A DNA stretch of 64,000 bases from Acidimicrobiia bacterium (GCA_965215185.1 OZ244034.1:1792001-1856000); one strand, 5' to 3'; shown: positions 6,587 through 45,676, counted from the stretch's first letter. The notes: generated by a model from the sequence alone, not told the origin. Numbers and translations: made by a program.

Positions 6587-6873
6587 AAAACTGCCTTGAT
6601 GGATTGTCGTCGACCTGACCTCAAGCGGTTCGAGGGAGCTCCGGAGCCCCGAACGGGACGGGTTTGTAGCTTCTGGCAGTATGTGCCAGGAACGGGCCGG
6701 CCTTCAAGACCTGGCCGGCGGTTTTCTTGCCAATCTTTAAAGAAGGGCGGCGAGGCGGGCCTACCAAGGGTGAACTCTCGCGAATGGAGACGAGGGTTCG
6801 CGAGAGGTAGGTTTCCCCCAAAGCAGTGAGCCCGCCTTCCGCCGGTCTAAATTTTTGACAAGGGCCTAGTCGG

Positions 6874-7953
6874 TTACACCTCCACGTTGCCCACAATGAA
6901 AGCCTCCAATGCGTCACGTGCTTGTTCATCTCGCATCTGCTGGGGAGGCGACTTCATGAAATAGGCGCTGGCCTCATGGAGCGGACCGGACACTCCCCGG
7001 TCCAGACCCAACTTGGCGCAACGAAGCGCATCGATCACCACCCCCGCCGAGTTGGGGCTGTCCCAAACTTCCAGTTTCACCTCGGCGTTGAGGGGAGTAT
7101 CACCGAAGGCGGTTCCCTCCAGGCGAATGTGCGCCCACTTGCGGTCGGTCAACCAGGGAACATGATCCGAAGGACCGATATGGACATCTTCCACCGGTGT
7201 TCGGGTCTGCAACTGGCTGGTGACCGCTTTGGTCTTGGATTCTTTCTTCGACACCAGCCGACTTCTTTCCAGCATGTTCAAAAAGTCGGTGTTGCCGCCG
7301 AAATTGAGTTGATAGGTGCGGTCCACCTTCACCCCCCGGTCCTGGAAGAGGTTCACCAGGGTGCGGTGCAAGATGGTGGCGCCCACCTGTGATTTGATGT
7401 CGTCGCCCACGATGGGAACTCCCGCCGCGCGGAACCGGTCGGCCCATTCGGGGGTGCGGGCGATGAACACGGGAATGCAATTGACGAAGGCACAACCTGC
7501 CGCCATAGCCTGTTCCGCATAGAATTCGGTGGCCTTCTGCGATCCGACCGGCAGATAGGAGACCACGACGTCGACCCGGGCCTTCCGAAGCTCCTCTGCG
7601 ACATCCACCTCGGGAATCGCCGATTCCTCCACCAGGTCGGCCAGATAGGACCCGATCCCATCCAGGGTGGGGCCTCGCTGCACGGTGACATCCAGGTGCG
7701 ATACATCAGCAAAGGTGATGGTGTTGTTCTGTCCCCCGGCGATTGCCTTGGACAGGTCTTGGCCTACTTTGGTGGCGTCCACGTCGAAAGCAGCCACAAA
7801 CCGAATGTCGCTGATGTGGTATCCGCCCAGTGTGGCGTGCATGAGCCCGGGAATCATTTGATCGACCGGAGCGTCCTGGTAGAACTCGACTCCCTGCACC
7901 AGGGACGAGGCACAGTTGCCCACCCCGACGATCGCAACCCTTATTTCTTTCAC
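6874..7953 (-). CDS. ino1: Inositol-3-phosphate synthase
   Basis: [42 protein letters not shown]. Confidence 0.95.
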
Positions 7954-13119: not shown

Positions 13120-15509
13120 TTATGACGCCGATCCCACCATTTCGCCCAGCTTCATAAGGTAGCCAACGCGAGCCTCGGTGGAAATGTACTTTGGATTGCT
13201 TGCGTCGTCACCCAGCTTTTGCCGGAGGCTCCTTACCACCGTCCGCATAGGCCGCAAGTCACCGCTGTTACCCGGACCCCACACCTCGCGCAACAGATGT
13301 CGGTAGGGGAGCACCTGCCCCGCGTGGACTGAAAGCTCATACAGCATCCGGTACTCGATGCCGGTCAGATGCACGGAACGTCCGTCCATAGTCACTTCAC
13401 GTTTTGCAAAGTGGATGTGAAGATCACCAAGAACATACTCTTCGGCGTTTTTGGCGGGGCGGGGCGCTTCTCGCCTTCTCAGGCCGGCCTCGATCCTGGC
13501 CCCCAGTTCCGTCGGCGAGAAGGGCTTGACAATGTAATCGACGGCCCCCAGGGCCAGGGCCCGGGCAATAATCTCATCCTGGCCGTAGACCGACAGGAAG
13601 ATAACCGGCACGTCTAAGGGGCGGAAGAAGTTCTCCATCAGTTCCAGACCGTCGGTCCCTGGGAGCATCAAGTCGAGCAGCACCAGATGGGGCTTTTCTT
13701 CCTCCATCAAGCGGCCAATCTCCTCCGCATCGCCGGTCAGAATGGGTATGTAGCCCGCTTTCGTCAGGGCATCCCGAACGTACTTGAGAGCATGGGGGTC
13801 GTCGTCCACCGCCAGTATCCGTTTCCGGTCGGATGCGGTGTGGTTTCCGAGCGCGGGGTGCAGGTCGGGTAGGAGCGTTTCCTTAACTGCCGGAATATTG
13901 AATAGGAACCGGCTTCCCAGGCCCGGGCCGTCGCTCTCGGCCCAGATACGACCCCCGTGGGCCTCCACTATCCCCCTGCCAATGGCCAGGCCCAAACCCG
14001 TTCCCTCCAGGTTCCTATCCCCATCCCTGCCGCGGAGCCGAGAAAACTTCCTGAACAGGTGGGGCAGGCGTTCGGCCGGCAAACCTGCACCGTCGTCGGC
14101 GACCGACACCGATACAAAGACCCCCTCCAGCATGGCGGTCACCCGGATGGGCGAAGAGTCGGCCGAGTGCCTGGCAGCGTTGGAGAGCAGGTTGTCCAGC
14201 ACTTGGACGATGCGGCGGCGGTCGGCCATCACCGACGGCAGATCGGAGGGTAGATCGATGTGGAGGTTGTGCCGGCCCCCTCCGCTGAGAAAGCAGGTCC
14301 TGGCCTGGTCGACTAGTACCGCCACGCTGGTGGGTTCGGTGGCCAAGGGCAGTGCACCGGTCTCGATCAGAGCAACATCCAACAGGTCGCGGATCAAGAA
14401 CCGCATTTGGTTGGACTGATCAAGAATGATGCGGTGGAATTGGGCCGTCTCGGCGGGGTGAAGATCAGAGGACTCTTGGAGCAGCGTCTCGGCGGAACCC
14501 TTGATAGTGCTCAACGGAGTGCGCAACTCGTGGCTCACCATGCCCAGGAACTCGGCTCGCAGCCGCTGGATTTCCCTCATGGGGGCCAGATCCTGCAGGG
14601 TCATGACGAAGGATTCCACCGTGCCATCATCGGACCGCACCGGGGTGGCGTTCAGGAGAGCGCTGACGCTGCGGCCGTCGGGAACCTGGATGGTGATCTC
14701 CTCGGCCCGCACTGTCTGCCCGGAAAGGAGCATCTTGGTCGCAAAGCACTTGGAAGGGGGGCAATTCCCCCCTTCCGCACGCCGGACCGTTATAACGTCT
14801 AGGAGTTCCTTGGCCGGCCGTCCCGGTTCCTGCAGATTGCTGATCATCCTTTCGGCCTCCCGATTGACCGACACCAGGTCCCCGGTCCTTACGTCGAACA
14901 CCAAGACACCCACCGGAGAAGTGTTGATCAAAGTCTCCAGATCGGTTCTGGCCCGTTGTTCATCCCGGTGTCGGCGGGCATTGGCGATGACCATCCCCGC
15001 CTGGGATGCGAACATCACCAGGGTCTCCTCGTCTTCAGGGGTGAACTCCCCGCCAGGGTTCTTTATGGCCAGGAAGATGAAGCCAACGCCCTTGCCCCGG
15101 CGTCGGATTGGCGCCACCAGAAAAGGCAACGCGCCACTGAATTTGCCCGGCGGGGAGAACTCTGGCAACCCCAGCCCCCGTGTGAAGCTATGGAAGTCCG
15201 GCAACCGCAGCGGTTGTTCCATATCTACCAGGGCCTGGTAATACAGCAGGCCATCGGGCAGGATTTCAAGGTCCCGGTGTTCCTGCGGGGTCATTCCCGA
15301 GGTGACAAAGAACTTCGCATGCCCCGCTTCATCTACCAGAGCGATGCCGCCATAGCGGGCCTCGGTCAGCGTCCGGGCGCTGTATACACCTCATCAAGGA
15401 CATTGTCCAAATCCAGGCTCTCGTTGATCCGGAGGCTGGCTTGACTCAGTCTGGTTAGCCGGTCCCGTAACGCCTGGTTCTCCCGAGCCACATCGTCGTT
15501 GTCTCTCAT
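13120..15509 (-). CDS. Soluble hybrid sensor kinase/response regulator (GAF-PAS-HisKA-HATPase-REC-winged helix), frameshift near 15385
   Basis: VSHELRTPL, NLLSNA, GTGLGL, LLDLMLPG, KPF, OmpR-type tail; N-terminus MRDNDDVARENQ... from 15509 is in another frame. Confidence 0.85.
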
Positions 15510-27478: not shown

Positions 27479-28240
27479 ATGAAAATGTTCGACCTGACCG
27501 GCAAAGTGGCCGTGGTCACCGGGGGCAACCGGGGGATCGGATTGGGGATGGCCCGCGGGCTGGCCAAGGCGGGCGCGGCAGTGGCGATATGGGGACGTAA
27601 TGAGGAATACAACCAGGCCGCCGTCCAACAATTAAAGGATCTGGGCGCCGAGGCTCTCCCGGTGCCTTGCGACGTCGCCTCCGAAGAGCAGGTCGAGGCG
27701 GCCGCGGCGGCCACCTTCGACCACTTCGGACAAGTCGACTCGATCTTCGCCAACGCCGGCATCGGCCGAAGTGCCCTCTTTCCCGACCTGCACCTAAAAG
27801 CCTGGGAGAAGGTGATGGCCGTCAACGCCACCGGAACCATGCTGGCCATCCGCTCGGTGACCCCCGCCATGATCGAACAGGGCGACGGAGGAACAATCGT
27901 GGTCACCTCCTCCATCTCCGCCCACTTCGGGATCCCCTATCTCCCCCACTACGCGGCCAGCAAAGCCGCTCAACTGGGACTGGTCCGCACCCTGGCGGTG
28001 TCACTGGCCCCCCACCACATCCGAGTCAACGCGGTGAGCCCGGGATGGATCGCCACCGAAATGACCGGACCCGAACAAAACCGCGGCGACTTCACCCAAT
28101 ATATTAACGACAGGGTCCCCTTGGCCCGGTGGGGAACCATCGAAGAGTTCGAAGGCATCGCCGTCTACCTGGCCTCCGACGCCTCCGCTTTCACCACCGG
28201 CGCCGAAATCCGCATCGACGGGGGCTTCTCGGTCTATTAA
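27479..28240 (+). CDS. SDR family oxidoreductase
   Basis: TGGNRGIG, NAG, YAASK, IDGG. Confidence 0.92.
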   Translation: MKMFDLTGKVAVVTGGNRGIGLGMARGLAKAGAAVAIWGRNEEYNQAAVQQLKDLGAEALPVPCDVASEEQVEAAAAATFDHFGQVDSIFANAGIGRSALFPDLHLKAWEKVMAVNATGTMLAIRSVTPAMIEQGDGGTIVVTSSISAHFGIPYLPHYAASKAAQLGLVRTLAVSLAPHHIRVNAVSPGWIATEMTGPEQNRGDFTQYINDRVPLARWGTIEEFEGIAVYLASDASAFTTGAEIRIDGGFSVY

Positions 28241-28587
28241 CCCCCGGTAAGGTCTTGATACTTGTCGGGGGCAGTGTGTGTGACGTTTGTTGAGTTGCCC
28301 GCCTCCCGATGGTAAATGCAAGCTTGCTATAAGGAGGTAAGTGAACCGCACCTCTCCCGAGATGCGGGCTAACAACCTGAACCGGCTGGCTGGTCGAGCT
28401 TCATAAGCCCGCGTTGGGCCAGTCCGAAAATGCCCCGGCTTACCCCCGAGTCGAGCACCGAGTCCTCGGCCAGCAACGCCGTGATCTTCGGCTTGGCCGC
28501 CGGGTGTGGCAAGGCTCGTGACCGCGCTAGTTGGGCTGTCTGGTGTCCCGCCAGAGCCGGACAGGAAGAACCGTTTGCGTTGCTATG

Positions 28588-28941
28588 TCACGATTGGCAA
28601 GGGCACACCGGCGCCTCATAGCCCTCTTTTGTCCAAGGCTTTGAGCAGTTCCTCGGTTTTGTCTTCCAAGCGTTGCACGTCCTCGACGTCCGGCCCGAAC
28701 CTCGGCTCGCGAACATGGGGAGGGTCTCGGTGAGACACGGGTTCTCTAGTGCCGAACCGGCGTCGTCGAGTTCGTAAAACTCGATTGTCCACTGGCACGG
28801 TTGGGAAAAACTTCCCGGCATGAACGCCTTGACTAGATAGCCGGCCTCTTCGAACGAGCCGTACAAAACGAGCGGTTCTGCCCCCGGCGTTGAATCTGAC
28901 GTCACGCCTTCGACGATAACACTTCCGAGAGGTTTGTCCAC
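28588..28941 (-). CDS. Hypothetical protein
   Basis: ORF track; no recognisable motif. Confidence 0.4.
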   Translation of the reverse strand: MDKPLGSVIVEGVTSDSTPGAEPLVLYGSFEEAGYLVKAFMPGSFSQPCQWTIEFYELDDAGSALENPCLTETLPMFASRGSGRTSRTCNAWKTKPRNCSKPWTKEGYEAPVCPCQS

Positions 28942-28968
28942 TCGTGTCGTCTAATAGCCAAGCCCTTT

Positions 28969-28982
28969 CTGTCCGGTAACTT
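28969..28982 (+). repeat. TGTCCGGTAA half-site, copy 1
   Basis: CTGTCCGGTAACTT, intergenic, within AGCCCT/AGGGCT inverted repeat. Confidence 0.75.
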
Positions 28983-29011
28983 GCAGGGCTCGTCGGTAGC
29001 CTCCTCTTTTA

Positions 29012-29392
29012 ATGGCAACCCCGAGTCCCGATCTCCTGCCTTCGATCGGCACCACCGTCGAGTGGCTGCAGCAACTGGACAACTACGAACTCAGTTACGG
29101 TGTCATGCCTCCAGAGCTGCTGTGCGGCCGCCAGAGCCCGGCATACCTGGCACTGGCCTATGCCCGCTCCCTGGGGGGGGTTTCCGGTCTTTGTGGCCAC
29201 GACGAATGGTCCGAGTGGACTTCGGAGGAGATGGAACAGGCGATCTGGTGGCTAATCGGGTTCTTCGAGGATCCCGGGTTCTTCCGGTTCTTGGAAGCCA
29301 ACGGCTGGCCCGACGGGTGGGCTCCCCCGCCGATTCCCCAGATTTCGGGAGTGGAAGCCGAGCAGCACCCCGAGTGCCGCTGCTCGGGGTAG
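29012..29392 (+). CDS. Hypothetical protein
   Basis: 126-aa ORF between two half-sites. Confidence 0.55.
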   Translation: MATPSPDLLPSIGTTVEWLQQLDNYELSYGVMPPELLCGRQSPAYLALAYARSLGGVSGLCGHDEWSEWTSEEMEQAIWWLIGFFEDPGFFRFLEANGWPDGWAPPPIPQISGVEAEQHPECRCSG

Positions 29393-29420
29393 CGGCCCTT
29401 TCGGGCCAGGGTCGCTCCAA

Positions 29421-29435
29421 CTGTCCGGTAACTGC
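29421..29435 (+). repeat. TGTCCGGTAA half-site, copy 2
   Basis: CTGTCCGGTAACTGC, intergenic. Confidence 0.75.
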
Positions 29436-29497
29436 TCGGCCCCTGCCAATGCGGATGTTTTCTTACTTGGGTTCCTACTTTTAATAGGGTTAGCGGT

Positions 29498-29710
29498 ATG
29501 AAGATCAGTATCAGTCTGTCCAGCGAAGATCTCGAGTTTCTCGACAGATACAAGCGTGTTCACCAGGCGTCCCGGTCGGCTGCTGTACGGCGGGCTGTAA
29601 GGCTTCTCCGCCTGTCCGAGTTGTCATCGGACTACGCGGCGGCGTTTGATGAGTGGGCCGATCATGGCCACAACGAGGCGTGGGATGCCACCGTTGCCGA
29701 CGGGGTTTAG
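29498..29710 (+). CDS. mazE: Ribbon-helix-helix antitoxin (MazE-like)
   Basis: MKISISLS...SRSAAVRRAV...WDATVADG; precedes PemK toxin. Confidence 0.85.
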   Translation: MKISISLSSEDLEFLDRYKRVHQASRSAAVRRAVRLLRLSELSSDYAAAFDEWADHGHNEAWDATVADGV

Positions 29711-30060
29711 TTGATGCGTCGCGGAGACATCCGCGTCGTGAATCTCGGTAACGTCGTCGGTGTCGAGTCAGCCCGGATCCGGCCGGCTGTGATCGTCAGC
29801 AATGACGGCGCCAACACGATTGCGGCACGGCTTGGACGTGGGGTTGTCACAGTCGTTCCTGTCACGTCGAACACGAAACGGGTTTACCCGTTCCAGGTTC
29901 TGTTAGACGCCGCCGAGACGGGACTAGACCGCGATTCCAAGGCACAAGCCGAACAGGTGAGATCGGTCGCTGTCGAAAGGGTCGGCAACCTGATCGGTCA
30001 CATGCCTGGGGATATCTGGGCCAACTCGACGACGCGCTCCGGCTCCACCTGGCCATCTGA
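29711..30060 (+). CDS. mazF: PemK/MazF endoribonuclease toxin, frameshift near 30015
   Basis: RPAVIVSND, VVPVTSN, SKAQAEQVRSV; expected end GQLDDALRLHLAI* (stop 30060) in shifted frame. Confidence 0.88.
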
Positions 30061-30077
30061 GTCGGAAACACGGCTTC

Positions 30078-30092
30078 GTGTCCGGTAACTGC
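30078..30092 (+). repeat. TGTCCGGTAA half-site, copy 3
   Basis: GTGTCCGGTAACTGC between mazF and the recombinase. Confidence 0.75.
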
Positions 30093-30159
30093 CAGGGGAT
30101 AGCCCGAGAAGAAAAACAGCCGACTTGTCTCTGCCGTCGGGTAGGTTTCGGGAGAGTTT

Positions 30160-31140
30160 ATGCGCCTGGCTCAACCCCCATCCGAACCCCGCGCTGTCGC
30201 AGTGGTGTCGGTGGAGACGGCTGCCAATTTGGCGGGGTCTCGTGCGGTTGAGACTCGTCGTGCTTATCGGCGGATGGTCGCCCGGTGGGCCGCTTGGGCT
30301 ACCAGTCGGGGTGCTTGGCCGAAGACGTGGGAGCCGCCTCCGTCGGATGGTTGGCGGGCTGCCACCGCCGGGGACATGGCTGATTGGCTTTCTTTTCTGG
30401 CTTCCGAGGGTCTAGGGATCTCTGCGGTGCGTATAGCCCGTGCTGCAGTGTCGGCCGCGCATCGGGAGGGTGCCAGCCTCCAGGTGCTGGCCGGCGGGGA
30501 GGGCTTGGCTGATCCGGCGCAGGATTGGTTGGTGTCCGCCACGATCGGCGGGATCGCCCGCCGATCGGACCCACCGTCCCAGGCGCCCGGGCTTCGCGTT
30601 CATGGGTTCGCTCGGATCCTGGCAGTGGTGGAACTTGAGGCCACCCCGGCCACTCCCCGGGGACGCCGTGCCATCCGCGACGCGGCGCTTCTGTGGATAA
30701 TGCGCGACGGGCTGTTACGCCGAGGAGAAGCCGCAGCACTGCAGTGGGACGACCTGGCTGTCGAGGAAGACGGCTCAGGCAGGCTCACCGTGCGGCGTTC
30801 CAAGACCGACCAGACCGGCGAAGGAGCAGTGCTGTGGATCAGCCCCCCCGCCACCGAAGCCTTGCAACGCTGGCGAGAAATAGCCGCCAGGCCCTCGATG
30901 TTCGATCTGACCGGCCGTTCAGTAGGACGGGTGGTCACCCGCCGCGCCGAGGCGGTGGGCCTTTCGGCCTCAGGCCATTCGCTGCGGGTGGGCATGGCCC
31001 AGGACCTGGCCGCCGCCGGCGCCAACTTCCCCGAGCTCTGCCAGGCGGGACGGTGGCAATCACCCACAACGGCCATTCGATATATCCGTTCCCAGACAGC
31101 CGACCGGGGAGCGGTGGCCCGCTACTACCGCCGCCCCTAA
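30160..31140 (+). CDS. Cre-like tyrosine recombinase (intact)
   Basis: Catalytic R (GLLRRGE), K (RSKTDQ), HxxR (SGHSLRVG), W (AGRW), Y (AIRYIR). Confidence 0.92.
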   Translation: MRLAQPPSEPRAVAVVSVETAANLAGSRAVETRRAYRRMVARWAAWATSRGAWPKTWEPPPSDGWRAATAGDMADWLSFLASEGLGISAVRIARAAVSAAHREGASLQVLAGGEGLADPAQDWLVSATIGGIARRSDPPSQAPGLRVHGFARILAVVELEATPATPRGRRAIRDAALLWIMRDGLLRRGEAAALQWDDLAVEEDGSGRLTVRRSKTDQTGEGAVLWISPPATEALQRWREIAARPSMFDLTGRSVGRVVTRRAEAVGLSASGHSLRVGMAQDLAAAGANFPELCQAGRWQSPTTAIRYIRSQTADRGAVARYYRRP

Positions 31141-31151
31141 AGAAATCCCTC

Positions 31152-31179
31152 GTGTCCTCAAAAGAAAATTACCGGACAC
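31152..31179 (-). repeat. 11-6-11 candidate recombination site containing inverted half-site copy 4
   Basis: GTGTCCTCAAA-AGAAAA-TTACCGGACAC; variant TTATCCGGACAC at 31276-31287. Confidence 0.65.
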
Positions 31180-31324
31180 AAAATCGCTCTCGAGGCCGGG
31201 GGTCCGAGGGGGTCCAAATGGGTTCGCCTCGTGTTAGCAAGCCGAGGCATTTACCCGAGCTGCCCAGCCCTGCCATTATCCGGACACAATTTCTCGGGGT
31301 CCGAAAGGATCCCTTTGGGGTTCG

Positions 31325-31547
31325 TATAATTAGGGTTGCCTCAAACTAGCAAGCTTGCGGCACCGCGGTTGGGGGTTCGCCGGTTTGTTTCGGCGGCCCC
31401 TGACCCTTTTTTATCACAGGCGGGTAACACCCGGGTGGGGGTGGCGTCTTGAAGGGTGTCGAGGGAACAGGCGCCGGCGTTTGTTTTTGCTGGTGGAGTT
31501 CCCCTCCGACTGCAATTGCAATCTATTTTTGAGAGGAAAAAAGCTTT
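31325..31547 (+). promoter_or_regulatory. -10 box and long structured 5' leader of the S-layer gene
   Basis: TATAAT at 31325-31330; GC hairpins such as GGGGTTCGCCG/CGGCGGCCCC; about 210 nt to ATG. Confidence 0.5.
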
Positions 31548-34122
31548 ATGTTTGCTTTTTTTAACCGTTCTCGGCGGCACGTAGCGGTGCTGGCAGCTCT
31601 GGCCATGTTGGCCAGTGTGCTGGTCGCAGCGCCGGCTGTTGCTGCTGAGGACCCGGAACCGGACTACGAGGCTACTTTGATGCGTGCGGTGGATGCGCCG
31701 TCTGCGGGGTTCACTGATGTTCCCTCCGGTCACGCAACGCTGGTGACATTGACTGTATCGCCTATTACGGGATCACCAAGGGCACTTCGGCGACCACCTA
31801 TGCGCCGTTGATGTCAGTGACCCGTGAGCACATGGCGCTGTTCCTGATTCGCCTGGCCGGCCTGGTGGGGATCGACGTCCCCGACGCTGGTGACACCGGC
31901 TTCACCGACACCGGTGAGCTGTCGGGCAAGTCGCAGGCTGCGATCAGCCAGTTGCGCCAGTTGGAGATCACCTCCGGCACTTCGACCACCACCTATTCGC
32001 CTGCCGATTCGGTTAAACGCGGTAATATGGCGTTGTTCATCGCACGGTTGATGAACAAGATGACACCGTTGACCGATGGTGACCCGAGCTTGGACGACAC
32101 CGTGTTCTATGGTTACACGCCTGATCGGATGTGCGAACGAGAAGGTGACGGTCAAGAACGAGGACGATGAAGAGGAAGGCCAAGCATCGGTTCGCCGTTC
32201 ACCGACTTGGGTTCGGTGAGCAAGAACCAGTATGACGCTATTACCCAGTTGTACGAGTTGGGTGTTGCTTCGGGTATCTCCGACACCGCTTATGCTCCGT
32301 CGGCTTTGATCACCCGTGCGGCGATGGCCGAGTTCATGGCTGCGGTGTTGGATCACTCCAACGCTCGCCCCGCTGGTGTGAGCATCCAGGCTGACAAGAC
32401 CTTCGGGCTTCGGCGAATATGTGTCCACTGTGATGGTCTCTGTCCGGGATGACGATTTCGGCCCTATGTCCGATCAGTTGGTGGACATCTTCCAGAACAA
32501 CTGCGAGGACCTGCGACGAGCCGCTGCATTTCATGACTTCCGGTGACGACGCCGGAAGTGCAACGGCAAGCAGTCGAGGGTGACTGTACGTGGAACACCG
32601 ATGATGCATCAGACCGACGGCAACGGCAACATCTTCTTCGGTGCTGACATCGGTCCCACCGACACTGATGACCCTCGGGTCTTACCCACACCCTGTTTAT
32701 GCGTGGATCGGTGACGAGGAAACCGGTGACGAGTTCAACGTGGACGAGACGACTACAACGTCGGTCTGGATCTTGAGTTACACACCCGCCGAGGAAAACG
32801 TTGAAGTCAGCACTTCGATCAACGAGGAAGCCACTATCCAACCCTCTCCGTGACACGAAGAGGGTGGACTCCTGGCCAACTGGCTGGCCAGCACGGTGAA
32901 CTTGGCCTCCACGAAGTTCCGTGTCACCGTCAACTCCGGCCAACTGTGAAGACACAGACGGTGACGGTGGACAACTGCGCTGATGTGGAGCGTCGGCGTC
33001 GAAGTGACGGCTGGACCCGGGAGGTCACTTTGACCGCGACGGACCGACGACCGATGATGGTCAACCCACCGTGTCAACCCGGCCGCCGTCCGACGAAGGG
33101 CATTGTTCGACCCGAGAACACAGCGATGAGGCTGACCAGGACCACCAACGACGACGGTACGGTCACGTTTGTTGTTGATGCTCCCAGGAACATCAAGAGC
33201 GACGAGTACCAGGATGTGGTCGACTGGTCACGTTCACGGTCCGAGCCGACGGCGAAGACGGCGACGGTGAGACACCATGGGCCCTTCACGATCAACTGGG
33301 TTGAGGACACACCAGTGCTCACCAGACACGACCATCGTTTCGGCTACCGACTATGTGATAGTCGACGGGACGGTGATAACCACGATGTCAACATCAGCGT
33401 CTCTCTCCGCCTCTACGACCAGTACGGCAACGGTATCCGCCAGAACCGAGAACGGCAACGCCTACCATCGTCACGATGAGATTGACCAGACGGTCACGGC
33501 ACCGACTACGTGACAGACATCGAAGGTGATGGCGACGAATGTCAGAGTCGGTGGCAATCTCGACAAGACCCGAGCGTCAGTTCCAGCAGCAGCCGCCGCG
33601 GCCGCGGCATGGCCAGAGCACTGGTCGCTGGACAACATCGTCAACAACGGGCACAACTGACGTGACCTTACGCGGTCGCTGAGCAGCCCGGTAAGGACGC
33701 TGAACGGCGACTCGACTAGACGAGGATGACACCAGGGCCGTGATGCCAACGGTGTTCAGATCACCTACGTCGACGGTGACGACACTGCCGGTGCACAGAC
33801 CGAGGCAGAACATCACCGTTTACTGTGGCTGCCGAGAAAGGACGGCGACGACACCCAAGTCGACAGTCGCTGCGACTCGGCTGACGATGACTCGCCGGCG
33901 ACAGCACTTCGGACCGCTATGGCGTGACGATGACGTTCTTCATGGTGAGTTGTACGCCATGGACGACAACGACACGTACATCGAACGACGACTGTTGCCC
34001 CAGATTGCGAGGTGTTCCGACCCGAACTCTCCGTCGACGACGGATTTAGAGTCGTCATCTACTACGCCAAGACGAGTCCACAATCTGTCCAGCATCTTCG
34101 ACACGACTGCCCGGAGGCCTAG
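31548..34122 (+). pseudogene. SLH-domain S-layer-type protein, broken by many frameshifts (end approximate)
   Basis: Signal peptide; SLH motifs GFTDV, VTREHMALFL, VKRGNMALFIARL, ITRAAMAEFMA spread over different frames; Thr/Asp/Val-rich tail. Confidence 0.75.
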
Positions 34123-34164
34123 GCCCACCGACAAAAACGAAAAGCAACCGCTCTACAACCCCGA

Positions 34165-34195
34165 AAGGAGGCTCCCCCCGGGGAGCCTCCTTCTC
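34165..34195 (+). terminator. Rho-independent terminator
   Basis: AAGGAGGCTCCCC/GGGGAGCCTCCTT hairpin after the S-layer gene. Confidence 0.75.
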
Positions 34196-34209
34196 TATGC
34201 CAAATAGGG

Positions 34210-34223
34210 GTGTTCGGTAACTT
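34210..34223 (+). repeat. Half-site copy 5 (one mismatch)
   Basis: GTGTTCGGTAACTT immediately after the terminator. Confidence 0.6.
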
Positions 34224-34476
34224 TCGGTTCAGAAACGCCGGTAATAGTCAGCACCGCCCCGGTCGTCCGATGGGAACGGGTCGTCCCAGCCTGAGGCTTC
34301 TCCCCGGACGGCAGCAGCCCGTCCGTCCTCCGCATCACCGACAGAAGCGCCGCCGTCAGACCCAAACGCCTCGTCCCCGAGGGGGTGTGCGGGTCCGGCC
34401 TGAGGCTACCCACCACGGTGGGGCAACTTCCCCAGGCCATCTAAAGCCCCCATTTCCCCACTCGTCCGAGGGAAAA

Positions 34477-34508
34477 TTTTGCGCGATAAATGCCGTTAAC
34501 GCGCAAAA
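34477..34508. other. lox/dif-like palindromic site (13-6-13)
   Basis: TTTTGCGCGATAA-ATGCCG-TTAACGCGCAAAA; arms 12/13 complementary. Confidence 0.6.
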
Positions 34509-34659
34509 CCGCATACGCATGATCCGCTAGGTTGGTGCGTATGGATTCCAGCCTCGCCCGACCCGATTCCGGCACCTCCCTCCAACGACCGAAGCCCTAG
34601 GCCCGGCCGCCGGTCTCGGGCAGCCGCCCGGCAGAGAGCCTATAGGAACCGCTTAGCCG

Positions 34660-34815
34660 TCGTGCACCCTCCCGATGGGCGGCCGACACTGCAGCGCGGC
34701 CCATCCGCCTGATAGGCACGGCGGGTCTCCATCGAGCGGGAACTGGCCAGGTTGTACCGACCCCGGGTTCCGGGAGCTGAAGTTGCATGACTCCGAGCCG
34801 TTTACCCGACGCCTG
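34660..34815 (-). pseudogene. Internally deleted 5' fragment of the 30160 recombinase
   Basis: NLASSRSMETRRAY vs NLAGSRAVETRRAY; RAAVSAAHREGA identical; upstream CGTCGGGTA shared. Confidence 0.75.
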
Positions 34816-35027
34816 GGACACCGGGGCACCGCAATTCCAAAGAAAAGGGGGGTTATATCGGATGGTGCCCAACCCTAGAGAAGGGGGTTAGCGGCCCATG
34901 AGCGTGGCGGCTAGTTCCTCGGGGGTCGCCTCGACGGCGATGGGTTCGTTGAGTTCGTCTTCGGTGGGTTGGTGGTGGGGGTCGTCCCAGCCGTCCCACC
35001 GGTCCGGTTTGCGGCGCTTCGGTGCGG

Positions 35028-35534: not shown

Positions 35535-35626
35535 CCCATGAGGATCGTGCCCGTGCGAGTCGAGAACCGCGACCGGCAGCCCCGACACCGGAACCGCTGC
35601 GACGGATGCCGCGCCCCGTCCTGCAC
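35535..35626 (-). pseudogene. IS1595-family transposase zinc-ribbon fragment
   Basis: HPSQRFRCRGCRSRFSTRTGTIL resembles the IS1595 CxxC..FS..TGT motif; no DDE domain. Confidence 0.6.
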
Positions 35627-36061
35627 GTTAACGAGCCTTTTCAGGAGTGGCGTTAGTAGCGGGCCACCGCTCCCCGATCGGCCGCCTGGGAACGAGTGTT
35701 ACGGATGATCATCGCCGGGGCCCGCCATCGTCCGGCCACACAAAATTCGGGCAGGCCGGTGCCCGAAGCGGCCAGATCCTGGGCCATGCCTACTAGTAGG
35801 GAGTGGCCGGAAGCCTCCAATCCCACCGCCTCTGCTCGGAGGGTGATCACCCGTCCTACCGAATCCCGAACATAATAGGGAGTTAGTCCCAAGGCACCGT
35901 CTGGGATTAGGGACTCTTTTGATCTTGTCCCCGAGGTCGGTCGGCGTCAAACGTCAACTCGAGTTTTGTGATGAGCATTCATCGCTCAGTCACTCTTTGC
36001 AGCCACATTGCCCACCGACACCGTGGCCTCTTCATCAGGGGTGTTTTCCCGTCGTCCCCAC
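35626..36061 (-). repeat. ~440-bp module (about 200 bp conserved DNA + recombinase 3' fragment), inverted copy of 43759-44214
   Basis: Shared GGGGACGAC..., CTCGAGTTGAC, GGGGACAAGATCAAAAGAGTC, GHSL..GMAQ.LAASG...SQAADRGAVARY, CCTGAAAAGGCTCGTTAACG. Confidence 0.85.
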
Positions 36062-43145: not shown

Positions 43146-43784
43146 ATGTTTACGCCCGGAAGGAAGTACTCACGGTCCGATGTGAGTAATCTGCTAGGTC
43201 TCGGACGGAAAGCCAAGGGTGGGATCTGGGTTTCGGGGATTCGAGAGCACAAAAACGAGTTTTTCATCTTCACAAATGTGGGAACGTCAGGCACCATCGG
43301 TGAAGACTTTGGTAACCGGTGGGAGGGTAGGGTCCTGCGGTGGTACCACAAGAAAGTCTCCCATCTCGGCTGGCCTAGTGTCCAGAGGCTCCTTGATACC
43401 GGACGGGCGCATGTGTTTTGGCGTTCGTCCACCCGGAACCTGTTCGAATACGCAGGTTACGGTAGGAAAGTACAGGTTGTTGGGACTTCTCCGGTTGAGA
43501 TTCTTTGGTCGTTCGAAGACTCGACTCCTGAGCCCGCGCTCCATGAGGGACAGGGAGCAGTTGACCAAGAAACGCAAAACACTGGCCTTCCATCCGCGTT
43601 CACAGTAGGCAGTCGGGCCCGTCATCCAAGGTTGGGAGTGGGTCGGGTTCTTGAAATCTCGGGTATTGGTTTGGGGGCCTCAGCCCTTTTGTTTGTGGCC
43701 GGTTTGGGGGAGAAGCATGAAGTGCCGCTGTCTGAGTTGGAAAGGGTGGCAGGATTCTGTGGGGACGACAGGAAGACACCCTGA
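43146..43784 (+). CDS. DUF3427/SRA-like domain fused to a PcrA/UvrD C-terminal Tudor-like domain (inferred)
   Basis: GRKYSRSDV...GGIWVSG...NRWEG..LRWY...HVFWR...FEYAG; C-terminal VGSRARHPRLGVGRVLEISG. Confidence 0.55.
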   Translation: MFTPGRKYSRSDVSNLLGLGRKAKGGIWVSGIREHKNEFFIFTNVGTSGTIGEDFGNRWEGRVLRWYHKKVSHLGWPSVQRLLDTGRAHVFWRSSTRNLFEYAGYGRKVQVVGTSPVEILWSFEDSTPEPALHEGQGAVDQETQNTGLPSAFTVGSRARHPRLGVGRVLEISGIGLGASALLFVAGLGEKHEVPLSELERVAGFCGDDRKTP

Positions 43785-44214
43785 TGGAGAGACGGCCGTG
43801 TCGGTGGGCACTGTGCTGCAATAGATCGACTTACAGAGGAATGCTCGTTACAAACTCGAGTTGACTTTTGACGCCAACCGACCTTGGGGGACAAGATCAA
43901 AAGAGTCTCTCATCCAAAAACGTGCCGTGGGGCTAACTCCCTTCTAGGTTTGGGGTGACTCCCCGTTCGGTGGAGCGCGTGATCTCCCAACGAGCAGAGG
44001 CGGCGGGTTTGAAGTTCCGGCCACTCACTACGAACGAGTAGGCATGGCCCAGGAACTGGCCGCTTCGGGCGCAGACTTTCCGGAATTATGTCAGGCTGGC
44101 CGGTGGCAATTCCCAACAATGGCCATCCGCTACACACGCTCCCAGGCGGCCGACCGGGGAGCAGTGGCCCGCTACTACCGCCACTCCTGAAAACCCTGAA
44201 AAGGCTCGTTAACG
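43759..44214 (+). repeat. ~450-bp module, inverted copy of 35626-36061, including decayed recombinase 3' fragment
   Basis: GMAQELAASGADFPELCQAGRWQFPTMAIRYTRSQAADRGAVARYY. Confidence 0.85.
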
Positions 44215-44229
44215 GCATTTATGATAAAA
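44202..44229. other. dif-like 11-6-11 site sharing a 16-bp core with 34486-34501
   Basis: AGGCTCGTTAA-CGGCAT-TTATGATAAAA. Confidence 0.55.
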
Positions 44230-44262
44230 TATAAGCACTATATTTCCCGATCGTCTGTCTGC

Positions 44263-44540
44263 ATGCACAAGACCTCAGCAGACATTCTTCTTCCAGTTCA
44301 TGGCTGGAAACGGTTACTGGAAGCCCTTCCGAAGAAGCCGCGTTCTCAGCACCACCTAGACATATCGAACCAACCTTTCCGCCCGGGCCACGCACACGCC
44401 AATGAGAGTGGCGCGGCAGTCCGGCCCGCACATCGCAAGACCGACCTGGAAGACCCCGCTACCACCGAATTTGTGCGCCGGGGTGCTGTCAAAGTCTGGG
44501 CCGAGAATCCACCAGGAAGGGAACCCTCCCAAAAGGTGTC
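44263..44540 (+). pseudogene. Decayed, internally deleted 5' copy of the 44587 recombinase
   Basis: DILLPVHGWKRLLEA vs DIHIPIKGWERVLDA; AVRPAH joined to RKTDLEDPATTEFVRR. Confidence 0.75.
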
Positions 44541-44586
44541 ATACCCCCCGTCATCAGATTCTTATGAAGGTGGTTGAAAGGAACAC

Positions 44587-45676
44587 ATGACCGCCACCCC
44601 TCCTGATCACCTCCCTGCGAACAGGAAACCGTTGGACATCCACATACCCATCAAGGGCTGGGAACGGGTGTTAGATGCAGCTCAGAAGAGCCGCGCTCAC
44701 AGCACTACGAAGACATATCGCACCTACCTTTCCGCTTGGGCCGAACATGCCAAAAAGCGAGGGGTGGCGGTCCGCCCCGCTCATCCCGCCGCGGTGGCCG
44801 AGTGGCTCACCACCATGGCCGACGAAGGCAAAGCGATGAGCACCCTGCAGGTGGCGAGAGCCGCGTTGGCGGCCGCCCATCGAGAGGCAGGCCTGGAAGA
44901 TCCCACCACCAGCGAACTGGTCCGGCGGGTGCTGTCGGGCCTGGCCAGAGAAGCCGCCCGAATGGGAAAGCGCCCCACTCAAGTGAAAGGGCTGACCGCC
45001 GACGACTTACGGCGCGTCCTCGCCCATTTCAATGCTCCGGGAACTCCCCTACCCACGCGGGCTGTTGTGAGAGACATCGCTTTGATCCAGGTGATGAGAG
45101 ACGCCTTGTTGAGACGCGGCGAAGCCGCCGAACTGGTTTGGGGCGACGTCTCCCGCGCCTCTGACGGGTCGGGGCGGCTGGTGATCCGTCACAGCAAGAC
45201 CGACCAGGAGGGAAAAGGGAGCCGTCATGTACCTGGGACATGACACGATGGCGGCTTTGGACCGGATCCGTCCCGCCGACGATTCGCCGCAGGCGTCGGT
45301 GTTCCAGATCACCGGACCATACATGTCCATTCGAATCGCGGCACTGGCCAAAAAGGCAGGTCTGGGTCCGGGATACAGCGGCCACAGCTGCCGGATCGGA
45401 ATGGCTCAGGACCTGGCCGCGGAGGGTTACAGCCTGGCGCAGTTGATGACCGCCGGGCGGTGGACCAATCCCGCCATGCCCGCTCGCTACACCCGCAACC
45501 AGACCGCCGCTCGAAACGCCGTCGCCCAGTACTACCGGCAACTCGGCCTGTTCAACAAAGATGCCCCGGTGAACGAAGGTGGGACCAAGCAGCAATGGTT
45601 CACGGACCACCCGAATCCTGTTCAGCCAACTGCCGGTTCTGCGAAACCCGCCTCTGAACAAAGATATGCTGGTTGA
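44587..45676 (+). CDS. Second Cre-like tyrosine recombinase, frameshift near 45222
   Basis: DALLRRGE, HSKTDQEG in frame 1; SGHSCRIG, AGRW, ARYTR in frame 2. Confidence 0.85.

Follow-up and report, generated by a model that had tools for sequence, protein, structure and literature searches.

Introduction

The attC sites of integrons are 57–141 nt long and folded, with imperfect inverted repeats and a GTTRRRY core, and clusters of attC sites also occur without an integrase. A lox-type site has 13-bp arms around an 8-bp spacer, and canonical tyrosine recombination needs matching spacers. Surface proteins are switched by tyrosine recombinases at the vsa and vpma loci of Mycoplasma, and comparable switches occur in Clostridioides.

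The available part of one report describes such a switch at C. difficile cwpV, where the tyrosine recombinase is RecV (PMC2784873). In the available excerpts of another, shufflon sfx sites have a conserved core and one conserved arm, the other arm being variable, and the recombinase Rci carries an extra C-terminal domain that is absent from Cre (PMC11852207). The dif modules of Acinetobacter, as portrayed in the accessible sections of a third, are discrete small units, very often toxin-antitoxin pairs, bounded by short sites; their order and context vary, and inversions and deletions occur between the sites (PMC13141974).

Here, we describe a locus within 64,000 nt of DNA from an Acidimicrobiia bacterium (GCA_965215185.1 OZ244034.1:1792001-1856000; hereafter the window, with positions counted from its first letter). 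It is an S-layer (SLH) gene locus that holds a real site-specific module-shuffling array, akin to dif modules, shufflons and integrons. We consider it probable, though by no means assured, that recombination sites for a Cre-like enzyme built the mosaic arrays of toxin-antitoxin modules at this locus.

Results

A short motif clusters with recombinase genes

A pattern search of all 64 kb found only four exact copies of the 10-mer TGTCCGGTAA, at 28970(+), 29422(+), 30079(+) and 31169(-), just as the first-pass annotation had reported. The sole copy with one mismatch, TGTTCGGTAA, lies at 34211(+). Taken by itself, the window count at up to one mismatch is unremarkable (5 against a shuffle mean of 2.9, with at least 5 in 17 of 100 shuffles); what is remarkable is the clustering. 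The 3.12-Mb genome has 11 exact copies where about 4.8 are expected, four of them inside 2.2 kb at this locus and one beside a recombinase paralogue. This paralogue is 70% identical and, its frame being locally shifted, may be damaged. The motif also accompanies a 76%-identical orthologue in a related genome.

The same link was observed with the 15-mer, searched at up to one mismatch. Genome G000 has eight matches, five of which fall within about 2.6 kb of either full-length recombinase gene of this type. Among 17 genomes of the genus, the three whose recombinase reaches 70% identity or more had 8, 3 and 1 matches, and the remaining 14 had 2, 1 and twelve zeros; a reversed-pattern control gave 10 matches summed over the 17. 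There was no enrichment in 300 other genomes of the class, where any match was found in 22 and the maximum was 2 per genome. The worry that the motif might be scattered genome-wide and unrelated to the recombinase is answered by the 11 genomic copies and by this class-wide result.

One arm of the site is conserved

We compiled a base-count profile of 21 sites, which were chosen by the motif itself. Conservation falls steeply before position 0 and past position 17, leaving a unit of about 17 nt, namely the 11-nt arm GTGTCCGGTAA followed by CTGCCA, outside which the sequence is variable. The profile bears out the previously noted likeness to sfx sites with one conserved arm, as far as the available excerpts describe those. 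The overlap regions are heterogeneous (CTGCCA, CTGCTC, CTTGCA, TGGCAG, TTTTCT), which counts against canonical tyrosine recombination at them, and long and short forms of the site differ by a 10-nt block. Most sites are one-armed, and the two-armed ones are unlike in spacing, with 6 nt in the window (31152-31179) and 15 nt in genome G011. The latter site is a near-perfect palindrome of 35 bp that can be read as 14-7-14.

The recombinase resembles Cre

The gene at 30160-31140(+) encodes a tyrosine recombinase of 326 aa (PF00589; Cre E 3.8e-14), whose PF00589 catalytic domain was recognized with E 2e-10. All 17 matches among solved structures in the PDB were to Cre or Tre. The Cre alignment spans residues 56-322 and takes in the C-terminal block SGHSxRVG..AG.W..YIR; overall identity is low. 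R173, K215, H273, R276, W299 and Y308 are invariant in all eight aligned homologues, which means that the R-K-H-R-W-Y set is kept, with Trp where the second His is usual. The NCBIfam models returned only XerC (16.8 bits, cut-off 335) and XerA/integron integrase (16.1 bits, cut-off 220), both below cut-off. The enzyme resembles Cre rather than IntI, as had been proposed at first reading.

In all three intact recombinase genes of this type, a site directed into the gene starts 12 to 72 nt 3′ of the stop codon; a 3′ site is likewise present in one of the two remnants examined. The motif is linked in this way to the recombinase lineage, although recombinase genes from different loci are alike only across their coding part. 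A more distant homologue (36% identical, locus L084) lies between two full lox-like sites whose spacers are mutually inverted.

Layout of the S-layer locus

The array begins behind an orphan S-layer gene leader (version 1, 28250-28346, +) that has a Shine-Dalgarno sequence, AAGGAGG, and is truncated exactly where the sister species G002 has its start codon. In G002, positions 1514-1609 of locus L037 align with 28246-28346 of the window and then continue directly into an SLH gene. The leader is followed by a 3.2-kb island (28347-31545) of modules, recombinase and a second S-layer leader, which is missing between the corresponding flanks in G002, as judged by synteny. Its left junction is bridged by a contig that covers 28192-28981 with 0 differences, and in contigs from runs X5 and X8 position 28346 is joined to 31571/2. 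The earlier reading had listed the S-layer gene but missed this context and the island.

Inside the island, a remnant of a tacA/tacT module (28444-28507, -) has 88–96% identity to the tacAT modules of L022, L021, L036 and L127. A supposed palindromic relative of the motif at 28536-28564 shares only TGTCYGG with it and was backed by no comparison, and we do not retain it. An ORF of 117 aa (28588-28941, -) matches no family. Site 1, cTGTCCGGTAACTTGC (28969-28984, +), contains the exact motif from 28970 and precedes an ORF of 126 aa (29012-29392, +), again with no family match. Site 2, a long form, TGTCCGGTAACTGCTCGGCCCCTGCCA (29421-29448, +), is the left boundary of the mazEF module.

This module (29498-30088, +) consists of mazE at 29498-29710, an RHH antitoxin (PF01402, E 1.2e-6), and then the PemK/MazF toxin gene mazF from 29711 (PF02452, E 5.9e-20), and it has copies of 96–97% identity in G002. 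In the sequence as given, the mazF stop codon falls within the motif, but this is probably artificial, a 1-nt gap at 30016 having disturbed the frame. Contigs from four of four runs carry an extra A there; by our own reading, this restores a stop at 30058-30060, which is probably the true one. The right boundary is site 3, the consensus form GTGTCCGGTAACTGCCA (30078-30094, +). The stretch past it (30094-30131, +) is also found behind the mazEF copies of G002, G011 and G007, over 35–38 nt, and this junction lies off the motif.

The recombinase gene is enclosed by a perfect 11-nt inverted pair, as had been stated: GTGTCCGGTAA at 30078-30088, within site 3, and TTACCGGACAC at 31169-31179, within site 4. 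Site 4 (31152-31179, -; 28 nt) starts 12 nt beyond the recombinase stop codon and lacks CTGCCA. The earlier reading of it as an 11-6-11 site holds for the layout, in which 6 nt separate the conserved arm (31169-31179) from an inverted one; the symmetry is imperfect, with the arms agreeing at 8 of 11 positions.

Next to it, 31180-31259(+), read by eye against 31288-31360, appears to repeat the beginning of the S-layer promoter/leader region in decayed form. Site 5 (31260-31287, -) is a long form whose arm carries a 1-nt insertion, and it borders the S-layer block. The variant noted there at 31276(-), TGTCCGGATAA, is genuine, and the site is homologous to the 35-bp palindrome of G011. The upstream region of the S-layer gene (version 2, 31288-31547, +) is conserved with G011 and includes TATAAT at 31325-31330, about 35 nt from site 5, as a putative promoter. 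This assembly splits the SLH-domain S-layer gene itself (31548 to approximately 34121, +) among at least 7 frames. Site 6, a degenerate form, TGTTCGGTAACTTTC (34211-34225, +), is the other variant that had been pointed out, and corresponds to the one-mismatch copy. A decayed copy of the same recombinase type (34229-34850, -; internal deletions, with a further 3′ fragment at 35647-35862, -) has its stop codon 8 nt from this site, which follows it in the same relative position as a site does at an intact recombinase. In relatives, several S-layer genes are interspersed with homologous recombinases.

Homology between genomes breaks at the motif

Comparison of loci revealed that the motif marks the exact points where modules moved or were swapped between related Acidimicrobiia genomes: homology ends at the motif or within a few bases of it. 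The mazEF module occurs in at least five contexts and tacAT in four. Flanks are reassorted at the motif, with A|B at L021 16813, A|C at L022 9012 and D|C at L021 14877. Blocks that end at the motif include L021 15925-16817, which equals L022 6629-7519 (97%), and L021 16812-18221, which equals L022 9011-10382 (91%).

The left edge of mazEF is the motif in the window, G002, G011 and G006, and a degenerate motif in G009, and the left flanks are all different; homology to the mazEF copies of other genomes starts immediately past site 2. In G002 (L037), mazEF has the motif at both edges and 96.8% identity to the window, and homology ends inside ..AACTG. Elsewhere, the window genome and G002 are 91% identical in coxL and 81% in a neighbouring gene. 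For tacAT, the end lies at the motif in G000, G011 and two G002 loci; in 6 other genomes it does not. Some junctions lie off the motif: the tacAT block starts away from it at its 5′ edge (L021 15925 / L022 6629), four mazEF copies have 35–38 nt behind site 3 in common, and likeness between the recombinase genes is confined to the coding part.

Module content and order, which the first-pass annotation had advised comparing, are therefore not invariant. Of the cassette capture or shuffling system that it had envisaged, the shuffling is visible in these reassorted modules, and capture may have accompanied it. Among the assembled contigs shown (contigs, not raw reads), none held an inversion or circle junction.

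Candidate mechanism

In our model, the 10-mer TGTCCGGTAA would be the core of a short recombination site in which a binding arm of 11 nt (GTGTCCGGTAA) and, next to it, an overlap of about 6 nt (CTGCCA) are conserved, while the second arm beyond them is not. The recombinase at 30160-31140 and its close relatives would bind the conserved arm, and strand exchange would take place within or beside CTGCCA. Directly oriented sites would lead to insertion or excision of a module, and inverted sites to flipping of a segment. Over evolutionary time, this could have produced small mosaic arrays at the S-layer gene locus, whose self-contained modules, mostly toxin-antitoxin (mazEF, tacAT, higA-type), vary in order, orientation and place among related genomes. 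The sites may still recombine today.

We infer, rather than observe, the pairing of this enzyme with these sites, because G002 has sites and mazEF but no close recombinase.

Alternative explanations

Could another enzyme act on these sites? The sites would then be served by host Xer, as in the dif modules of Acinetobacter, or by a second type of recombinase in the genus (43–48% identical), and the gene at 30160-31140 would be one more bracketed module. That gene is indeed site-flanked like any module, G002, G006, G007 and G009 have motif-flanked mazEF without a close orthologue, and dif modules, in the available account, show site-flanked toxin-antitoxin movement with no dedicated adjacent enzyme. 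G002 contains at least 5 sites and three copies of mazEF, and its sole match to the recombinase is a homologue of 47% identity that lies 16 kb away from one of the modules. However, each intact recombinase gene of this type has a site just 3′ of it, at three loci whose flanks are otherwise unrelated, motif counts track the presence of the close orthologue, and genomes with only the second type are mostly free of the motif (0 matches in G003, G012 and G015). We regard the involvement of a different enzyme as unlikely. Slightly more doubtful is that the locus is primarily an S-layer phase or antigenic switch, in which the recombinase inverts itself or an S-layer segment, and toxin-antitoxin modules have collected as bystanders at what is a hot spot of recombination. 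This would suit five relatives in which homologous recombinases have 2–5 intact S-layer genes of either orientation around them, often with about 180 bp between the recombinase and an S-layer start codon. It would also suit the window, where the S-layer gene is enclosed by sites 5 and 6, which are inverted and each adjoin a recombinase copy, and the conserved TATAAT is close to site 5. In G011 the recombinase and S-layer gene point away from each other, in the window both run the same way, and in each case the S-layer block ends within a site; the L084 recombinase lies within a segment bounded by inverted full sites. Yet the site does not come between the putative promoter and the gene, and an inversion would move the promoter with it. 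Moreover, no alternative arrangement was seen inside one population, inspection of 6 second-type recombinase genes found no inverted repeats around them, the S-layer gene of the window is split into many frames, and L127 and L130, loci that have motif-bounded modules but no S-layer gene, would be left unexplained.

The many degenerate sites, the several fragmentary recombinase copies, the 10-nt block that separates long from short forms and the off-motif junctions would also fit a motif that is the relic of a longer repeat or mobile unit, rearranged by homologous or illegitimate recombination with no site-specific enzyme now at work. We find this improbable, as conservation extends over only about 17 nt between unrelated flanks, which is too short for homologous recombination. 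The recombinase also keeps all its catalytic residues, and a cassette identity of 97% between species that are 81–91% alike elsewhere argues for recent movement. A very remote prospect is that the motif is an operator or promoter element of downstream genes with no role in recombination: three copies do lie 42–81 nt upstream of same-strand start codons, but others are 3′ of genes and on the opposite strand, between-genome homology breaks at the motif, and it is not dispersed genome-wide. Site-specific recombination by the Cre-like enzyme is the reading that we favour.

Discussion

The array resembles dif modules in that mazEF and tacAT each recur, site-bounded, in different contexts. Dif modules, however, are plasmid-borne, with 28-bp two-armed XerC/XerD sites in obligatory alternating orientation and no dedicated enzyme alongside, whereas the arrays here are chromosomal, include a Cre-like recombinase and have sites with one conserved arm. 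The alternation rule does not apply either, as three neighbouring sites are direct repeats.

With shufflons, the locus shares asymmetric one-arm sites, several of them within a few kb adjoining a recombinase gene. A shufflon only inverts, shuffling the 3′ ends of pilV; the sites here bracket entire genes, are found in either orientation with direct repeats among them, and are not associated with a pilV. The enzyme, too, appears to differ from Rci, with a length of 326 aa and a Cre alignment that reaches residue 322.

Like an integron, the locus combines an array of small cassettes, including toxin-antitoxin ones, with an adjacent tyrosine recombinase, and the site-bearing genomes that are free of the recombinase resemble attC clusters without integrase. 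It is unlike an integron in its sites of about 17 nt with no conserved second half, in the reverse complement of the motif (GTTACCG), which does not fit GTTRRRY, in the lack of a match to any integron-integrase model at cut-off and in modules that each bring a promoter and do not all face the same way.

Among solved structures, Cre comes closest, and the L084 homologue has two-armed, lox-like sites. Cre/loxP uses one site for plasmid dimer resolution in phage P1, in contrast to the many one-armed chromosomal sites here. Finally, as in surface-protein switches, the recombinase lies beside surface-protein genes, with paralogues in both orientations and sites in 5′ regions; unlike in those switches, the sites also bracket toxin-antitoxin modules that are distant from S-layer genes.

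Distribution of the motif

A search of the window recovered the exact copies of TGTCCGGTAA reported in the first-pass annotation, at 28970(+), 29422(+), 30079(+) and 31169(-), with no other exact copy in the 64 kb and a single one-mismatch copy at 34211(+). With up to one mismatch, 5 matches were observed versus 2.9 expected, and 17 out of 100 shuffles also gave five. The number of copies in the window is unremarkable; it is their clustering that stands out. The whole source genome (G000; the window is G000:C1:1792001-1856000, within one 3.12-Mb contig, 60.7% G+C) carries 11 exact copies versus about 4.8 expected from base composition, 4 of them inside 2.2 kb. Several other G000 copies appear unrelated and were dropped: 2982271 sits within an Obg-like gene, 1095239 and 1111488 adjoin IS110-like transposase genes, 1110996 is near an IS fragment and 2582765 lies 3′ of an SLH-protein gene.

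Copies of the 10-mer can be extended to the 15-mer TGTCCGGTAACTGCC. With up to one mismatch, this pattern matched 8 times in G000, 3 times in G011, twice in G002, once each in G013 and G005, and 0 times in each of the remaining 12 genus genomes; a control with the reversed pattern gave 10 matches summed over all 17. Among 300 further genomes of the class a match was present in 22, never more than 2 per genome. The motif is rare in both the genus and the class, and is therefore not a genome-wide sequence unrelated to the recombinase. Its reading as an operator was rejected as the main one, and the palindrome at 28536-28564, previously listed as a relative, was removed from the motif family. Counting exact 10-mers in 17 loci mostly surfaced repeated S-layer gene segments and did not recover the known motif, because its copies differ.

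The recombinase and its neighboring sites

The open reading frame at 30160-31140(+) carries a phage-integrase domain. All 17 distinct PDB sequences matched were Cre or its derivative Tre (best E 3.8e-14), in two stretches covering residues 56-242 and 267-322, and NCBIfam gave only sub-threshold matches to XerC and XerA/integron integrases. This bears out the initial description of the enzyme as Cre-like rather than IntI. Residues R173, K215, H273, R276, W299 and Y308 are unchanged throughout an alignment of 8 homologues.

A tblastn search of G000 revealed a paralogue with 69.5% identity at 2,501,020-2,501,937, flanked by three motif copies (2,500,528, 2,502,015 and 2,503,552), all on the minus strand. 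Within the window, the same search found a decayed copy, two 3′ fragments and, at 44689-45541, a more distant copy whose frames are shifted. The paralogue shows a local frame shift in the 8-homologue alignment: about 35 residues are out of frame, after which the frame is restored (2,501,240-2,501,420, or 8240-8420 of L022, the extracted paralogue locus). This stretch reflects either a compensating pair of indels or assembly errors.

Among 41 related genomes, the protein was matched in 13 of the 16 other genus genomes and in 1 of 24 outside the genus. Close orthologues are confined to G011 (76%) and G013 (73%, partial), and the other matches, 43-48% identical, form a second type. In 3 out of 3 intact genes of the window type, a site starts 12-72 nt past the stop codon and is directed into the gene; next to the decayed copy at 34229-34850(-), the degenerate site 34211(+) lies just 8 nt past its stop. 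Between the recombinase genes of the window, L022 and L021 (the G011 locus), likeness is confined to the coding part. A second-type recombinase, split by a frameshift at about 45220, occupies 44587-45676 directly upstream of a coxM-like gene, and G012 has an intact copy at the equivalent position (L023 17381-18511).

Searching genome contigs with the single protein confirmed 0 relatives, and the alignment was used as the query instead; 527 out of 597 candidate stretches then encoded relatives. The 77 loci kept are titled as metagenome-assembled Acidimicrobiia, Dehalococcoidia, Acidobacteriota, Longimicrobiales and others.

Gene modules with edges at the motif

Module content and order had been expected to vary between genomes, and comparison of G011 with the paralogue locus of G000 showed that they do. 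Three blocks aligned by blastn: L021 13613-14891 with L022 7761-9026 (93%), L021 15925-16817 with L022 6629-7519 (97%) and L021 16812-18221 with L022 9011-10382 (91%). Their ends coincide with motif copies, except for the 5′ edge of the tacAT block (L021 15925, L022 6629). The flanks are reassorted, with left and right types A and B at L021 16813, A and C at L022 9012, and D and C at L021 14877. Pfam identifies the block that moved as a tacA/GNAT-toxin pair, accompanied in G011 by a higA-type gene; relative to the recombinase, its place is downstream in G011 and upstream in G000. The tacAT module is present in 13 of the 17 genus genomes. It ends at the motif in G000, G011 and two G002 loci, and no motif was found at its end in G012, G009, G014, G016, G005 and G013.

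The mazEF module (window 29498-30088) is present in 12 of the 17. The motif marks its left edge in the window, G002, G011 and G006, and in degenerate form in G009, and the left flanks of the motif-edged copies all differ; the site of the G011 copy is 0.8 Mb away from the recombinase locus of that genome. A motif also lies 3′ of mazF in the window, two G002 copies, G011, G007 (degenerate) and G009 (partial). The mazEF copies of G015, G016, G003, G005 and G012 showed no motif. The module in L037, a G002 locus, is 96.8% identical to that of the window over 650 nt, with homology that starts right past the site on the left and stops within ..GGTAACTG on the right; the background likeness of the two genomes is 91% for coxL and 81% for a neighboring 502-aa gene. 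Past site 3 (30078-30094), 35-38 nt are common to four mazEF copies whose downstream genes differ, which places that junction off the motif.

Contigs of 4 out of 4 sequencing runs have one more A at window position 30016 than the assembly; its depth is full in two runs and roughly half in the other two. With it, mazF ends in ..LDDALRLHLAI with a stop at 30058-30060. A reading in which the mazF stop codon is part of the site was rejected. The gene is frameshifted either in the assembly or in part of the population.

Elsewhere in G002 (L127 10600-18000), three large genes (293, 704 and 643 aa) adjoin motif-flanked tacAT and mazEF modules. Our guess is that they encode a DNA-methylase-like protein and nucleotide-binding proteins, and the region looks like a defence island.

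Anatomy of the site

The consensus of 21 motif-picked sites is gTGTCCGGTAACTGCCA; site 5 (31260-31287, with a 1-nt insertion) and degenerate copies in loci L036, L132 and L135 were omitted. Because the rows were selected by the core, only the fall-off of conservation is informative. Base counts level off before position 0 and past about position 17, and thus the site consists of one conserved 11-nt arm, about 6 conserved nucleotides and a variable side. Shufflon sfx sites are described as having 12-nt arms and a 7-nt core, of which the core and one arm alone are conserved (PMC11852207); the one-armed layout observed here matches the layout described there.

A long form, with an additional 10-nt block CTGCCCAGCC ahead of CTGCCA, was found at window 29422, L022 7525, window 31260-31287 and G011 13548-13582. 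The last of these, TGTCCGGTAATGGCAGGCTGGGCAGTTACCGGACA, has two arms; a 14-7-14 reading makes 12 of 14 positions symmetric. The copy at 31152-31179(-), proposed earlier as an 11-6-11 site, does have two arms around 6 nt, but these are symmetric at just 8 of 11 positions. The spacings of the two two-armed sites disagree.

A second short repeat, ATAAATGCCGTTAACG, occurs beside recombinase fragments that lack the main motif (34486-34504, 35626-35640 and 44204-44222), and a related CCGGTAACCGC..ATAAATGCGCG box lies between recombinase and S-layer gene in loci L033 and L034.

The distant homologue L084, from a Caldilineaceae assembly, encodes a recombinase with 36% identity between two full lox-like sites, GCTAAAGCGTGTATAA-GTGGAG-TTATACACGCTTTAGC upstream (5545-5582) and AAAGCGTGTATAA-CTCCAC-TTATACACG downstream (6865-6897), whose 6-nt spacers are mutually inverted. 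Judged from its sequence, this segment is a candidate for self-inversion, and its enzyme and sites may form a new Cre-like pair. In a strict test for paired palindromic sites on either side of the gene in 62 distant and 10 genus loci, L084 alone was positive; the generality of the two-sided architecture is therefore unsupported. Recurring 13-mers near the recombinase in 60 distant loci and the window were mostly G+C-rich chance matches, from which the window and L084 alone stood out.

The S-layer locus and the island

The gene following the recombinase (31548-34121) encodes SLH domains. Recombinase and S-layer gene are co-directional in the window and divergent in G011, and in both genomes the S-layer block ends within a site. 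The gene is spread over at least 7 reading frames in the window and its G011 counterpart (L021 10748-13311) over at least 5; neighboring genes (447-814 aa) and the S-layer genes of G003, G009 and G012 are intact. Two readings fit: a pseudogene in each of the two genomes, or a poor consensus built over a gene that varies between strains.

In G002, the short-chain dehydrogenase gene is followed without a break by a leader that carries a Shine-Dalgarno sequence, and then by the S-layer gene: L037 1514-1609 corresponds to window 28246-28346, and L037 from 1610 onward to the window from 31546 onward. With leader and gene contiguous in G002, window 28347-31545 makes up an island of 3.2 kb. Contigs from two studies (runs X5 and X8) likewise lead from 28346 to 31571/2, by way of 22-23 intervening letters of other sequence. 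The source sample may be among these runs, and they do not count as independent proof. One contig with 0 differences covers the left island junction. All run evidence consists of assembled Logan contigs, in which starts, ends, rare inversions and circles are not visible. Runs X2-X4 are from a sponge metagenome (shares 0.05-0.08), and no habitat was deduced from them. Very low contig cover (90% likeness) over 32976-34303 was not taken as a finding, and joints from 31007-31020 to 44089-45444 were rejected as rearrangements, being contigs of other recombinase genes that lie across two paralogues.

In relatives, second-type recombinases have 2-5 intact S-layer genes around them; these are paralogues of 700-850 aa with a common N-terminus and occur in both orientations. 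The recombinase is often about 180 bp from an S-layer start codon. At its right edge the locus shares synteny with the window, through a coxM-like gene. In L023, L026-L028, L031 and L037 (from G012, G009, G003, G015 and G002), S-layer paralogues are interleaved with 1-3 such recombinases and with IS elements, an arrangement suggestive of an S-layer variation locus. No site at which the second-type enzyme might recombine was found, inverted repeats around 6 second-type genes were not convincing, and 9 aligned recombinase/S-layer intergenic regions shared only a weak AAAGAA..CCGGTA box.

Recombinase 3′ fragments and their downstream sequence form a pair of inverted repeats at 35626-36061 and 43759-44214, about 430 nt in length and about 80% alike. 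They enclose a 7.7-kb segment with a DM13-domain gene, the 502-aa gene, putative nuoA-D-like genes (named by eye) and a hydrolase-like gene. Relative to coxL, the 502-aa gene is inverted in G011 and G006 versus G000 and G002.

Discussion

Most likely, modules were inserted, lost and flipped at a recombination site whose conserved half is the motif. The likeliest agent is the adjacent Cre-like recombinase, which would bind the conserved arm; on recombination, two motif copies would be joined inside GTAACTGCC. We infer the pairing of enzyme and site, the position of cleavage and present-day activity. The recurrent placement of a site just past the stop codon of window-type genes points to this enzyme. 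G002, with at least 5 sites, three mazEF copies and no close recombinase orthologue, fits less simply; another recombinase may act instead, or those sites may be relics, both of which are less probable than the preferred reading, in which the adjacent enzyme acts.

A wider and rather doubtful extension of the preferred reading is a lox-type counterpart of the integron. A Cre-like lineage, found in uncultured Acidimicrobiia and with relatives among metagenome-assembled genomes of several other phyla, would capture, excise and flip self-contained cassettes through one-armed double-stranded sites, the cargo being toxin-antitoxin genes, possibly defence genes, and S-layer leader or promoter segments. 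If true, a single enzyme would keep a small bank of cassettes supplied and at the same time rewire the cell surface. The array would also point to S-layer loci with resident recombinases as surface-variation hot spots in these bacteria.

In topic searches of a paper library, no description of such a system came up. Gene modules bounded by sites have good precedent in integrons and in Acinetobacter dif modules. If the array works as proposed, it would represent a third, independently evolved way in which toxin-antitoxin pairs and other small modules are packaged to move site-specifically, and would add another recombinase/site pair to the Cre-like tool set. It is worth stressing that the proposed driver is a Cre-like enzyme with shufflon-like one-armed sites, and that the actinobacterial class in which the array occurs is poorly known. 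The array has its logic in common with dif modules, with shufflons and with integrons, but lacks defining features of each.
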